Below the pieces are notes generated by a model, which made no database searches, was not told where the DNA came from, and saw nothing but the letters and a program-made list of their open reading frames with translations. Of a stretch of 64,000 bases of DNA, positions 10,361-51,385 are shown piece after piece. This DNA comes from Escherichia coli (lineage in GTDB: Bacteria; Pseudomonadota; Gammaproteobacteria; Enterobacterales; Enterobacteriaceae). The position numbers and the translations under genes are program-made. Where the stretch lies: assembly GCF_024700885.2 (NCBI RefSeq), contig NZ_CP117016.1; one strand, given 5' to 3'. Positions within the stretch are counted from its first letter, which is position 1; each line of letters starts with the position of its first letter.

Positions 10361-10375
10361 GCTTTTTTATACTAA
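10361..10375. other. attL: attL core (GCTTTTTTATACTAA), followed by the lambda-like P' arm
   Basis: Core is followed by GTTGGCATTATAAAAAAGCATTGCTTATCAATTTGTTGCAACGAACAGGTCACTATCAGTCAAAATAAAATCATTATTTG, lambda attP P'-arm sequence. Confidence 0.9.
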
Positions 10376-24001: not shown

Positions 24002-24381
24002 CAATGGATTATTCACAGTTAAGTGATTTTGAAATTAACAAGCGAGTGGCAATCGCAAATGGACTTTTGGTTCAGGGCATTGATGATAGTAAAGCCACTG
24101 GAATGACTAGCAAATATCACGAACTCCGGCCGCACACTGTTTGGGTGAGTGATGGTAAAAACCCATGGGTGCAATATGCACCAACTCTTTGCTGGGAGGA
24201 TGCTGGACCTGTCATCTTGAAGAATCGCATCAGTCTTGTTTGGGATTGCGCTGAAGATGGCAGTTCTGAATGGTGGAATTCTGTTGATCAGTTCGATTCT
24301 TGCCGAGTTCAGTACCAGTCTAATCCCCTCCGCGCCGCCATGATTGTATTTCTCATGATGCAGGACGCCAATAATGCTTAG
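23998..24381 (+). CDS. nin-region hypothetical protein
   Basis: ORF starting [26 protein letters not shown]...; no recognised domain. Confidence 0.5.
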
Positions 24382-24559
24382 CCCATCCCAATCCCTTCAA
24401 TACCAGAAAGAAAGCGTCGAGCGGGCTTTAACGTGCGCTAACTGCGGTCAGAAGCTGCATGTGCTGGAAGTTCACGTGTGTGAGCGTTGTATATATGAAT
24501 GCTTAAATATGGTGGAACATAATGAGAAATATAAGCAACATAGACGAATTAAGAAATAA
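24374..24559 (+). CDS. ninF: NinF-like protein with 3' end displaced by an insertion
   Basis: N-terminal 35 aa ([37 protein letters not shown]) match lambda NinF as recalled; the remainder is unrelated, and the expected NinF C-terminus (CAELMSDPNSSMYEEEDDE) is encoded at 25030..25086 in another frame. Confidence 0.6.
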   Translation: MLSPSQSLQYQKESVERALTCANCGQKLHVLEVHVCERCIYECLNMVEHNEKYKQHRRIKK

Positions 24560-25031
24560 ATTATCATATGATGATGTTTTAGGTGTGCTTAGATGGAAAG
24601 TGTCTCCTTCTAATAATGTTAAGGTTGGCAGTGTTGCTGGTTACATTAGGAGTGATGGTTATAGGATGTTAACTATCGATGGTGTAATTACTTATGCTCA
24701 CCACGTTATATGGATGATAAATAATGGTGAGATTCCATTAGGGTATAAAATTGATCATATAAATGGAGTAAGGTCAGATAATAGGCTATCTAATCTTCGA
24801 TTGGTTACACACCAACAGAATGCACAGAACCAAAAGAGAAAAATAACCAATTCGTCAGGAGTGACTGGAGTATATTTCAATAAAGAGAGATGTAAGTGGA
24901 TTGCGAATATATGCGTAGATGGGCGCACCAAATATCTTGGAATATTTGCAAGCATCATTGACGCTATTGCAGAAAGGAAGAGGGCAGAAAAAGAACTGGG
25001 TTTTCATGAAAACCATGGCAGACCATAACTG
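24487..25031 (+). mobile_element. Inserted free-standing HNH endonuclease cassette inside ninF (approximate boundaries)
   Basis: AT-rich ~0.55-kb segment with its own RBS and ORF, flanked by the two halves of ninF. Confidence 0.5.
24522..25028 (+). CDS. HNH homing-type endonuclease
   Basis: 168-aa ORF with HNH motif (YKIDHINGVRSDNRLSNLRLVTHQQN) and AP2-like segment (GVTGVYFNKERCKWIANI). Confidence 0.8.
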   Translation: MRNISNIDELRNKLSYDDVLGVLRWKVSPSNNVKVGSVAGYIRSDGYRMLTIDGVITYAHHVIWMINNGEIPLGYKIDHINGVRSDNRLSNLRLVTHQQNAQNQKRKITNSSGVTGVYFNKERCKWIANICVDGRTKYLGIFASIIDAIAERKRAEKELGFHENHGRP

Positions 25032-25081
25032 CGCAGAACTGATGAGCGATCCGAATAGCTCAATGTACGAGGAAGAAGACG

Positions 25082-25351
25082 ATGAGTGATTTCTCTGAGC
25101 TTATTTCCTTCAAAAAAGACAGAGAAGAAATGCGGACTGAATCTGTCTATTACGTTCAACACCGGAATAAACGCTCTGTGCTTGATCAGGAGCTGGTTAT
25201 TACCGGAGACCTGGCATTCAGAACATATAAGGCCAGCATGGAAATGAAGGATTTCCCTAAATGTGGTTCTGAAAGAGAAGCCGCGTTAAAGCTGGCAGAG
25301 TGGATGCAGAGAATGGCTGCTGCAATTGAGAATTACTGGAGCGAACCATAA
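25082..25351 (+). CDS. nin-region hypothetical protein (89 aa)
   Basis: ORF with ATGA overlap to the ninF remnant stop. Confidence 0.5.
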   Translation: MSDFSELISFKKDREEMRTESVYYVQHRNKRSVLDQELVITGDLAFRTYKASMEMKDFPKCGSEREAALKLAEWMQRMAAAIENYWSEP

Positions 25352-27079: not shown

Positions 27080-27154
27080 GGGTCAGTCGTATAAAGGTCA
27101 TTACGGAAGGCTGTTAACCTTCTTATCGTGGTTCGAGTCCACGCTGTCCCGCCA
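27080..27154 (+). tRNA. tRNA-like gene, anticodon GTT (Asn-like)
   Basis: Hand-folded cloverleaf: acceptor GGGTCAG/CTGTCCC (one mismatch), anticodon stem GAAGG/CCTTC with loop CTGTTAA, T-arm CGTGG-TTCGAGT-CCACG, discriminator G and CCA. Confidence 0.5.
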
Positions 27155-27159
27155 AATAT

Positions 27160-27235
27160 GCTGGTTTAGCTCCAATGGTAGAGCAGTCGCCTTGTAAACG
27201 AATGGGTAGCGGTTCAAGTCCGTTAACCAGCACCA
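27160..27235 (+). tRNA. tRNA-like gene, anticodon TGT (Thr-like)
   Basis: Acceptor GCTGGTT/AACCAGC, canonical D-arm GCTC-CAATGGTA-GAGC, T-arm AGCGG-TTCAAGT-CCGTT, CCA end; anticodon stem has two mismatches. Confidence 0.5.
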
Positions 27236-37514: not shown

Positions 37515-38933
37515 ATGCCGATTCAGCAACTTCCGCTTATGAAAGGCGTCGGCAAAGACTTTCGAAACGCCGACTATATCGACTATCTGCCAGTGAATAT
37601 GCTGGCTACACCCAAAGAAATCCTGAACAGCAGCGGATATCTTCGCTCATTCCCGGGCATTGCCAAACGTTCTGATGTGAACGGTATATCGCGCGGCGTC
37701 GAGTACAACATGGCGCAGAATGCTGTCTATCGTGTGTGTGGCGGCAAGCTCTACAAAGGCGAAAGCGAGGTCGGTGACGTCGCCGGAAGTGGTCGTGTAT
37801 CAATGGCGCATGGTCGGACATCACAGGCGGTAGGGGTTAAAGGGAAACTGGTCGAGTATCGCTATGATGGCACGGTTAAAACCGTCTCAAACTGGCCTAC
37901 AGACAGCGGATTCACTCAGTATGAGTTAGGTTCAGTTCGCGACATTACGCGCTTGCGTGGGCGTTATGCGTGGTCAAAAGACGGCACTGATTCATGGTTT
38001 ATCACTGACCTTGAAGACGAATCGCATCCTGACCGTTACAGCGCACAATATCGCGCAGAATCGCAGCCGGACGGCATCATCGGCATCGGCACATGGCGAG
38101 ACTTCATCGTCTGCTTTGGTTCATCGACGATTGAATATTTCTCCCTGACTGGTGCAACCACCGTTGGTGCCGCTTTGTATGTCGCACAGCCATCGCTGAT
38201 GGTGCAGAAAGGTATTGCCGGGACTTACTGCAAAACGCCGTTTGCTGATTCGTATGCGTTCATCAGCAATCCGGCAACGGGTGCGCCGTCTGTATACATC
38301 ATCGGCTCCGGTCAGGTATCACCAATCGCCAGCGCGAGCATTGAGAAAATCCTCCGCTCCTACACTGCTGATGAACTGGCTGATGGCGTGATGGAATCAT
38401 TGCGGTTTGATGCTCATGAATTGCTGATTATCCACCTTCCGCGCCATGTTCTTGTTTACGACGCATCTTCAAGCGCCAATGGTCCGCAATGGTGTGTGCT
38501 GAAAACAGGCTTATATGACGATGTGTACCGCGCTATCGACTTCATTTACGAAGGCAATCAGATAACGTGCGGCGATAAGCTGGAATCTGTTACCGGGAAA
38601 TTGCAATTCGATATCAGCAGCCAGTACGACAAGCAACAGGAACATCTGCTGTTTACTCCGCTGTTCAAAGCGGATAACGCAAGAGTGTTCGACCTTGAGG
38701 TTGAATCTTCAACTGGTGTTGCGCAGTACGCCGACCGCCTGTTCCTTTCTGCAACCACTGACGGCATCAATTACGGACGTGAGCAGATGATTGAGCAGAA
38801 TGAACCTTTCGTTTACGACAAACGTGTTTTGTGGAAGCGAGTCGGGCGCATCAGGAAAAATGTCGGCTTCAAATTGCGCGTTATCACGAAGTCACCTGTC
38901 ACTCTGTCTGGCTGCCAGATAAGGATTGAGTAA
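37515..38933 (+). CDS. Tail accessory protein (P22 gp10-like)
   Basis: 472-aa ORF, same length and position as P22 gp10. Confidence 0.7.
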
Positions 38934-39886
38934 TGGCTGATTCGAATCTCAATGAGCCGGTAATCATTCAGGCTACACGACTCGACACATCAGTCCTTCC
39001 ACGCAATATCTTCTCGCAGTCATATCTGCTGTACATTATTGCACAGGGTACTGATGTTGGTAACGTGGCAAACAAGGCCAACGAAGCAGGGAAGGGGGCT
39101 TATGATGCACAGGTGAAGAATGATGAGCAGGATGTCACCCTTGCAAACCATGAATCCAGAATTGAAGCTGCTGAAGCAACTCTCATCAATCATGAACATA
39201 GAATCGCAGAAGCGGAAATCACTCTTGCAGATCATGAAACAAGGATTACGGCTGCCGAAACAGAGCTTGCTGATCACGAGACGCGAATTGCTACCAATGA
39301 ATCTGAGTTAGCAAACCATGATGCGCGAATAACTCAGAATACAACCGATATCGACGCACTTGATACCAGGCTCACAGCGGCAGAGGGAAGTATTTCGACG
39401 CTACAAAGCACAGTTGGTGATCACTCAACAAGAATATCTGCGCTTGAGTATGCCACCACGCGCAAGAAATCAGAGGTTGTTTACTCAGGAGTATCTGTAA
39501 CCATCCCGACAGCGCCGACCAACCTTGTTAGCCTGCTGAAAACGCTCACGCCGTCATCCGGCACATTGGCACCATTCTTCGACACTGTTAACAACAAGAT
39601 GGTTGTGTTCAACGAGAACAAAACCTTGTTCTTCAAGCTGTCGATCGTCGGGACGTGGCCCAGCGGAACCGCCAACAGGTCAATGCAGCTAACCTTTTCC
39701 GGCTCTGTTCCTGACACGTTGGTCAGCAGTCGTAATGCGGCGACAACAACCGACAACATCCTGTTAGCTACGTTCTTCAGCGTGGATAAAGACGGCTTTC
39801 TTGCCACAAATGGCAGCACGTTAACCATTCAGTCGAATGGTGCGGCGTTTACTGCCACAACCATCAAAATCATTGCGGAGCAGTGA
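38933..39886 (+). CDS. Tail needle (P22 gp26-like) with extended coiled coil and C-terminal knob
   Basis: N-terminus [43 protein letters not shown] matches gp26; repeated heptads ([39 protein letters not shown]...); extra ~150-aa C-terminal domain. Confidence 0.8.
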
Positions 39887-40365
39887 TGGAAATAAAGCTC
39901 ATCGATAATCCGGTGAAGCTTGCAGAATTCCTCAACAATCCGGCAAACACGGGAAATATCGTAGACAGTGGAGATAAATACTACATCAAGCCTGATGCGG
40001 TATACCTCGGCATCTACGAAGGATTAGTGCTGGCTGGCGTTCATGAAGTGCGTAACTTCTGGCATAGCGTTGTTGAATGCCATGCGGTGTACGACCCCGG
40101 ATTCCGTGGTGAATATGCACTGCAAGGGCATCGATTATTCTGCAAATGGCTTCTCGAAAACTCACCATTCCTTAACAGCATCACTATGGTTCCTGACACC
40201 ACGAAATACGGACGGGCAATTATCCGTTTGCTTGGCGCTACCCGTGTTGGTCACCTTGATGATGCTTATACCAGCAATGGAAAGCCTGTAGGCATCACGA
40301 TTTATCAGTTACCGCGCTCAAAATACGAGGAGCTAAAGAATGTTAATTTTCCAGATTGCCAATAA
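39883..40365 (+). CDS. Head assembly protein (P22 gp14-like)
   Basis: 160-aa ORF in the conserved position. Confidence 0.55.
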
Positions 40366-44830: not shown

Positions 44831-45379
44831 TTAGTGTAATCTCTGATCGTCTGAATCGTGTAAGAACTCCATGAGACTTTGAACCGGAATTGGTTCTATT
44901 GATGATAATGTGAACACAGGAATATTGAGACTTTTGCAACGCTCAAACACTCCCTTATCATGAGTCCATACCTCGTCAGCATTAATTGCTCTTGCAATTG
45001 CTATTATTTGTCTGTCAAACTTAATTTTGTTTGCTGTACCTTCTGTGCTAATTTTCCTTAATTCTTTTAATGTTGGTATCGATGCGCATTCAATAGCAGC
45101 CAACTCATCAAATGATACAGTTTCGAAGCACGATAACGATTTGATAACATTCAGTTTTTCTTGTTGGTAATCTTTATGGATTCCAACTAAAAACTCCGCC
45201 AATACAGGAGTTGGAACGATGATTGTCCCGTTCTTGTTATCTATTCGATCAACAAGAGCTTCTGCTCTTCTTTTGGCATCTGGAATCTCAGAACCAAGTA
45301 TAGGGTCAGATAATCTATAATCGTGTTCTATATCTGATAGTAGGTATACCAGAATATTGGTATCTAAAATTACTCGCAA
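44831..45379 (-). CDS. PIN-domain nuclease-like protein
   Basis: 182-aa ORF MRVILDTNILVYLL... with acidic residues spaced as in PIN domains (D6, E~62, D~122, WTHDKG); start overlaps the upstream gene. Confidence 0.7.
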   Translation of the reverse strand: MRVILDTNILVYLLSDIEHDYRLSDPILGSEIPDAKRRAEALVDRIDNKNGTIIVPTPVLAEFLVGIHKDYQQEKLNVIKSLSCFETVSFDELAAIECASIPTLKELRKISTEGTANKIKFDRQIIAIARAINADEVWTHDKGVFERCKSLNIPVFTLSSIEPIPVQSLMEFLHDSDDQRLH

Positions 45380-46089
45380 TTTATCTTCCTCAGAGTCCTA
45401 AGGATTGAATCAACATCGCGTTCCTCGGACCACTGATCTCCAGGAACTTGCTTGATAGCATTAATAGCATCCTTGAGTGATGATTTTTTGAGCAATACAA
45501 ATGAAGTTATTTTTAGTTTCTTTAGCTCCCATTTGTTGTTCTTTTTTTCCCAGCACCCATCTCCTTTAACCCTAATATATTTGAATAGATGGGACCCAAG
45601 AGCTGCCGCCAAATCAGGGGTTGCCTCGCACTTGAATGTTTCACCGTTGGCTCCCTCAATACGCACAGGTATTGAGTTGTCTTTTCCGCCAACACTGTAT
45701 AGCCTTCCTTGAACTTCTGACGTTTTTGTTATGAGTAAAGGGATTGGCTCCTTTTTTACTCGCGGGAATGCGATAATGGTTGAGTGGTTTCGTCCGAGTA
45801 GTTTCGCTGAAAAACCATCATGCTCCAGTAAATTAACAATTTTTTGATACGCGGGTGATTTCTCTTTGGCTGAGAGAGAGGCCCTTGCTATGACAGCGTT
45901 ATAACAAATATCATTATCGACCCATGCATTTAAGTCAGCCGATCCTTCACTTACACAGTCGAAGTGAACAGAATCTGCAGAACCGTATAGATCTACGAGA
46001 GCAGACATATACTTGACCAACTTAGCCATTGACAGCTGGCCAGGGGTGGTTCCGTCAAGTTTTAATGTGAGTCCATTGCTTTTTTTCAT
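45370..46089 (-). CDS. Hypothetical protein (239 aa), partner of the PIN-domain gene
   Basis: ORF directly downstream of mnt on the same strand, overlapping the PIN gene by 10 nt; no recognised domain. Confidence 0.6.
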   Translation of the reverse strand: MKKSNGLTLKLDGTTPGQLSMAKLVKYMSALVDLYGSADSVHFDCVSEGSADLNAWVDNDICYNAVIARASLSAKEKSPAYQKIVNLLEHDGFSAKLLGRNHSTIIAFPRVKKEPIPLLITKTSEVQGRLYSVGGKDNSIPVRIEGANGETFKCEATPDLAAALGSHLFKYIRVKGDGCWEKKNNKWELKKLKITSFVLLKKSSLKDAINAIKQVPGDQWSEERDVDSILRTLRKINCE

Positions 46090-51370: not shown

Positions 51371-51385
51371 GCTTTTTTATACTAA
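51371..51385. other. attR: attR core (GCTTTTTTATACTAA), preceded by the lambda-like P arm
   Basis: P-arm sequence (CTGTTACAGGTCACTAATAC...TTGATTCATAGTGACTG...) upstream; bacterial flank CTTGAGCGAAACGGGAAGG downstream. Confidence 0.9.

Follow-up and report, generated by a model that had tools for sequence, protein, structure and literature searches.

The window, that is, the whole 64,000-nucleotide stretch of Escherichia coli DNA analyzed here, contains a P22-like prophage of ~41 kb with an integrase at one end and a tailspike at the other. The lambda att core GCTTTTTTATACTAA was detected in two exact copies that bound the prophage (Table 1), where zero chance matches were expected, and the prophage was located between ybhC and ybhB, which we take to be the classical lambda attB site. 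Judged by its sequence, the prophage is intact and integrated at the lambda attB site, and so pairs lambda-site integration with a virion module of Lederbergvirus type.

Table 1. Features of the tail needle gene, its neighbors and other parts of the prophage (window positions).
Feature	Position	Strand	Remarks
Lambda att core, first copy	10361-10375		
ninF	24374-25089		
HNH_3 endonuclease gene	24522-25028	+	PF13392, E = 1e-19
tRNA-Asn(GTT)	27080-27154	+	
tRNA-Thr(TGT)	27160-27235	+	
gp10 homologue (tail hub / head closure Hc3)	37515-38933	+	probable docking partner of the needle; PHROG 578, E = 2e-228
Tail needle gene (gp26/gp9 homologue, HS1 type)	38933-39886	+	ATG to TGA; 317 codons
Conserved N-terminal domain, residues 1-60	38933-39112	+	would plug the tail-hub (gp10) channel, as in Sf6
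Coiled-coil shaft (probably trimeric), 16 heptads, residues 63-174	39119-39454	+	register analysis; AlphaFold2 helix
Five copies of a 14-residue (two-heptad) repeat, residues 69-138	39137-39346	+	identity autocorrelation
C-terminal knob, TNF-like jellyroll, residues 175-317	39455-39883	+	PF16532; PDB 4k6b, 3rwn
gp14 homologue (DUF2824)	39886-40365	+	PHROG 651, E = 5e-74
Minus-strand gene pair	44834-45379 and 45373-46089	-	PIN domain in one protein: PF01850, E = 4e-10
Tailspike, 861 aa	48210-50795	+	
ORF of 95 aa	50796-51083		adjoins the tailspike
Lambda att core, second copy	51371-51385		

According to PGAP and PHROG, the late-operon genes followed the P22-type order gp4, gp10, needle, gp14, gp7, gp20 and gp16. 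The gp10 homologue, named 'packaged DNA stabilization protein gp10' by PGAP, ended in a TAA stop that overlapped the needle ATG (TAATG). Similarly, the TGA stop of the needle gene overlapped the ATG of the gp14 homologue (TGATG), and GGAG was found 5 nt upstream of this ATG, an arrangement which suggests that needle and gp14 may be translationally coupled.

Several other parts of the prophage are described here for completeness. An HNH_3 endonuclease gene was located inside ninF; the upstream ORF had a NinF match (PF05810, residues 20-44), the downstream PGAP NinF fragment was labeled 'missing N-terminus', and the two pieces gave no alignment with one another. It thus appears that ninF has been split by the insertion of a homing-endonuclease gene. 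The two tRNA genes lay between the Q-like antiterminator and holin genes. P22 carries sieA between gp16 and the Arc/Mnt region; in the window this slot, following the gp16 homologue, was occupied by a pair of minus-strand genes, one encoding a PIN-domain protein and the other, overlapping and upstream, a protein of 239 aa without a Pfam match. PADLOC gave zero matches for this pair (44834-46089), which could be toxin-antitoxin or superinfection-exclusion cargo.

The needle protein was named 'tail needle knob protein' by PGAP (WP_228356255.1, from a 100%-identical CDS of E. coli MLI114, NZ_CP117013.1); identity to the MLI114 chromosome was 100% across the window. It matched PHROG 1030, 'tail needle knob' (E = 7e-135), and its residues 1-111 were spanned by PHROG 1219, 'tail needle protein' (E = 5e-57). 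The Pfam family PF16532, 'Sf6-type phage tail needle knob', was detected on residues 136-317 with a score of 354 bits (E = 1e-106; the cutoff is 27). Among NCBIfam profiles there was no dedicated model for the needle, only sub-threshold coiled-coil matches (e.g., SMC and PspA). Weak matches to MscS_porin, ATG16 and tropomyosin in Pfam, and to reovirus sigma-1 in the PDB, were set aside as reflecting coiled-coil composition.

The first-pass annotation had proposed that the N-terminal 60 residues match P22 gp26 and that the protein is ~85 residues longer, with an extended coiled coil and an added C-terminal domain. The first two points agreed well with our comparison: 47 of the 60 N-terminal residues (78%) were identical to P22 gp26, and the needle, at 317 aa versus 233 aa, was 84 residues longer. 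Identity in this domain was 57/60 to each of Sf6, HS1 and HK620, and the N-terminal half of the protein matched gp26 N-terminal chains in the PDB (e.g., 8eap_B, E = 2e-27). The similarity to P22 at the N-terminus, along with a coiled coil that aligned up to P22 residue 138, might be taken to mean that this is a plain P22-type needle that runs colinear with its P22 counterpart and differs in length alone. However, BLASTP homology stopped at query residue 159 (P22 residue 138); no alignment was obtained between query residues 160-317 and P22 residues 139-233, the sole other BLASTP alignment having an E value of 0.30, and the C-terminus matched PF16532 and solved knob structures instead. Neither did the needle protein show homology to the P22-type tip (P22 gp26 residues 141-233). 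A plain P22-type needle is thus hardly conceivable. As full-length colinearity was absent, with homology ending at about residue 159 of 317, the reading of an extra domain stands.

The architecture proposed for this extra part needed to be revised. Gaps of 14+7 residues relative to P22 gp26 were found in the shaft. Relative to Sf6 gp9, gaps of 14+14+7 residues accounted for all 35 extra residues; all were in the shaft and mapped to the repeat region and just downstream of it. All gaps in both comparisons were multiples of 7 residues. From these alignments, the 84 extra residues over P22 appear to be made up of about five heptads (~33-35 residues) and a different, larger tip (~50 more). Using the fusion points of Leavitt 2013, the tip replacement amounts to 144 residues in place of 93 (PMC3741392). 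The C-termini do not align, and the knob takes the place of the unrelated ~93-residue tip of P22 instead of being appended to it. The core of the earlier reading, a needle of the gp26 family with a lengthened heptad coiled coil and a knob of Sf6 type at the C-terminus, is supported.

Analysis of the shaft revealed a heptad register that was unbroken over 16 heptads. The 'a' positions were N63, L70 ... I168 and the 'd' positions Q66, H73, A80 ... L171, and one register was aliphatic in 15/16 heptads (L70 to I168). When the segment was shuffled, none of 20,000 shuffles equalled the observed aliphatic filling. The AlphaFold2 monomer contained a single helix at residues 42-175 with pLDDT >90 over roughly residues 70-160. 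Besides, the identity autocorrelation of the needle peaked at lag 14 (0.40) and lag 28 (0.36), which corresponded to five copies of a two-heptad repeat with the approximate consensus [TE]-L-x-[DN]-H-[ED]-x-R-I-x-x-x-E-x. The copies were 36-71% identical in protein and 40-74% identical in DNA (42-nt units), and Tandem Repeats Finder reported zero DNA-level tandem repeats in positions 38800-40000; the units are too diverged in DNA for the repeat to show up outside the protein sequence. A run of near-identical heptads had been reported for this region. Heptads and the motifs were indeed present (ADHETRI at residues 99-105 and 113-119, ANHESRI once at 71-77), but the repeat unit spans 14 residues and its copies show moderate similarity, so that 'near-identical' is an overstatement.

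Six core 'd' positions were occupied by histidine (residues 73, 87, 101, 115, 129 and 164; window positions 39149-39424), alternating with Ala or Asn. The identical pattern of six was found in HS1, compared to four such histidines in Sf6 and two in P22. If stacked in layers in a trimeric core, these histidines could render the stability of the shaft dependent on pH or metal ions. Work by Bhardwaj and colleagues (2009, J Mol Biol 391:227), going by its title, reportedly linked needle stability to coiled-coil length.

With regard to the C-terminus, strands were predicted at residues 179-316, after the helix, in the AlphaFold2 monomer, and this, together with the PF16532 match, bore out an earlier description of the segment as beta-rich. 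Since the model is a monomer whose confidence is low at residues 1-40 and in some stretches of the knob (mean pLDDT 73), it backs secondary structure only. Compared to solved knobs, residues 165-317 had 2 differences to HS1 (4k6b, E = 3e-90) and 4 to Sf6 (3rwn). In the 1.1 A structure of the HS1 knob (4K6B), three L-glutamates are bound and the tip holds a phosphate (PMC3741392). In the window needle, all L-glutamate-contact residues (E181, K235, S283, D285, L290 and K312) were conserved, as was the phosphate triad S266-R267-N268 at the knob tip; the other residues named by Leavitt, S169 and A305, were also present, so that every one of them occurred with the same numbering. By its likeness to HS1, the knob of the window needle may bind the same kinds of ligand.

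The closest well-characterized relative was the needle of prophage HS1 (EcHS_A0316 / WP_000785558.1), which is also 317 aa long and aligned without gaps with 305/317 identical residues (96%). It was previously described as having 16 heptads, versus 11 in Sf6 and P22, and a predicted shaft of ~210 A, and as sharing 98% identity with Sf6 in the N-terminal domain and 99% in the knob (PMC3741392). The window needle has the same 16 heptads, the same knob and all glutamate and phosphate contacts. The twelve substitutions relative to HS1 were V8E, V35I, Q54K, R62K, D72N, A93E, S96I, E100D, D107A, A121T, A138T and S269A. A single one, S269A, fell in the knob, where it adjoins the phosphate triad; the needle of phage 720R6 also has alanine at 269. 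The other eleven lay in the N-terminal domain or the shaft. The integration sites were different, the lambda attB for the window prophage and a site next to tRNA-Thr/proA in strain HS for HS1.

The gene for gp9 of Shigella phage Sf6 (282 aa; knob PDB 3RWN) occupies the same slot between gp10 and gp14 homologues, and its knob is about 99% identical to that of the window needle. This protein is 35 residues shorter, with 11 heptads versus 16, and its shaft is far less conserved than its ends. Salmonella phage P22 gp26 (PDB 2POH, 3C9I) is encoded at the same gene position and shares the trimeric coiled-coil principle and the plug and envelope-contacting role; it also has 11 heptads, and its tip (residues 141-233) shows no sequence relationship to the window knob. 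The needle had previously been likened to knob-bearing needles of an 'Sf6/HK620-type'. The Sf6 half of this comparison was correct. HK620 gp26 was excluded as a knobbed relative: it is a 233-aa protein whose alignment with P22 gp26 extends through the final residue, and because it has a P22-type tip without a knob, this grouping is wrong.

Phages vB_EcoP-720R6 and JEP4 had 317-aa needles (954-bp genes) that were 97% identical to the window needle, and the needle of phage Gally (317 aa; 954 bp) was 96.7% identical over the aligned part. In these three phages the needles differed by few point substitutions, and the tailspikes and integration modules were different. The 'partial genome' record of vB_EcoP-720R6 included the adjacent host genes ybhB and bioA, and because of these genes it is probably a prophage at the same site.

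Based on these comparisons, we consider it almost certain that this is the needle gene of a P22-like (Lederbergvirus) prophage and that its product belongs to the HS1 type, with a long shaft and a knob tip; none of the results contradicted this. The internal repetitiveness of the shaft, with its 14-residue period, raises the question of whether the five extra heptads arose by recent tandem duplication or are an assembly artefact of this genome. The low identity of the 42-nt units and the lack of any report by Tandem Repeats Finder (see above) argue against such an origin. Furthermore, of 5,426 complete E. coli genomes, 163 carried the 954-bp form (93-98% identity), as did the three isolated phages and E. 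coli HS; the 849-bp, Sf6-length form was the other class among hits sampled down the list. The gene family as a whole occurs in ~940 E. coli prophages. Because the 954-bp form is widespread and its repeat units have diverged, the long allele is old and a recent duplication is refuted, leaving this explanation with next to no likelihood.

By analogy with P22, Sf6 and HS1, the needle would function as a trimer, with residues ~63-174 making up a parallel coiled coil of three strands. In cryo-EM of Sf6, the helical hairpins of the N-terminus were seen to build a quasi-sixfold plug inside the channel of the hexameric hub (PMC9728967). In the same way, the helical plug formed by residues 1-60 would seal the channel of the hexameric gp10 hub after packaging and retain the DNA. 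P22 gene 26 mutants yield particles that leak DNA and are not infectious. The coiled coil would project the knob beyond the tailspikes and place the tip for first contact; at ~1.5 A per residue, which is our own estimate, five extra heptads should make it roughly 50 A longer. During infection, the tailspikes would draw the virion down to the outer membrane. Contact with this membrane would then release the needle and open the channel for the DNA and for the ejection proteins, that is, the homologues of gp7, gp20 and gp16, which are encoded just downstream of the needle. It is from experiments on these relatives that the needle is predicted to trimerize, plug the channel, bind ligands and be released on infection.

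It had been suggested that the C-terminal segment may influence host range. In its strong form, this would mean that the knob is a receptor-binding domain which sets host range and that the needle is a second adhesin. In its TNF-like fold the knob resembles the fibre knobs of adenovirus and PRD1, and no part of the tail lies further out (PMC3741392); Sf6, moreover, requires OmpA/OmpC as secondary receptors (PMC9728967). Both points would fit such a role. However, chimeric P22 phages given the HS1 knob, or both the shaft and the knob of Sf6, infected Salmonella normally, with normal yields and plaques (Leavitt 2013, PMC3741392), and this argues against the suggested influence. In the same study, mutations of the glutamate site were without apparent effect on virion function, and changes of the needle tip affected only how fast K+ was released and DNA delivered (PMC3741392). 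Besides, a Shigella phage and many E. coli prophages with different tailspikes share a knob of about 99% identity; such near-invariance is not what is expected of a specificity determinant. We therefore regard a receptor-binding knob that sets host range as improbable, and on the published chimera data a host-range role was set aside as the main function of the needle.

The tailspike of the window prophage had a P22 head-binding domain at residues 1-113 and, towards the C-terminus, a Peptidase_S74 intramolecular-chaperone domain at residues 689-755. For its central part (~160-640), none of 50,697 phage records gave a match covering >=80%; the best matches were to the endosialidase tailspikes of CUS-3 and 720R6, which aligned at the ends only.

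One possible explanation for the two needle lengths is that the 11- or 16-heptad polymorphism is adaptive, being matched to the size of the co-resident tailspike and keeping the position of the needle tip relative to the tailspike tips. We compared tailspike lengths in annotated records of 23 phages and prophages, a small sample in which shared ancestry was not corrected for and in which the length of a protein says little about its physical length. The median was 799 aa with the 317-aa needle (n=11) versus 673 aa with other needles (n=12; Mann-Whitney p = 0.011). When each distinct length was counted once, the p value was 0.034, and for knob-type needles only, it was 0.053. A first sample of 11 had given p = 0.13, compared to about 0.01-0.05 in the enlarged sample of 23. 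The ranges also overlapped. For example, the long needle of HS1 occurred with a tailspike of 636 aa, and short needles were found beside the long tailspikes of Z142-1 (823 aa) and Kapi1 (791 aa). This adaptive reading is therefore offered tentatively, and we think it rather unlikely to be correct.

The needle protein itself is of little novelty, as its type, the 16-heptad shaft and the knob structure have been published for prophage HS1; such proteins are already described and annotated and are common in E. coli prophages. The value of this gene is accordingly little more than support for a correct annotation. The one biological question it bears on is why two unrelated tips and two discrete lengths of shaft persist among P22-like phages; chimeras in the literature point to an effect on the kinetics of DNA delivery and not on host specificity. 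E. coli prophages with near-identical needles (loci L015-L026 and that of HS) were found at the lambda attB at ybhB, at tRNA-Arg/yfdC with IntS, near dacD, near torT and at tRNA-Thr/proA; in L015-L026, tailspikes ranged from 634 to 981 aa, and the O-antigen-modifying cargo varied (GtrAB-like glycosyltransferases, an acyltransferase and an O-antigen polymerase). Such varied sites, tailspikes and cargo beside a conserved needle illustrate the mosaicism of modules in these prophages.
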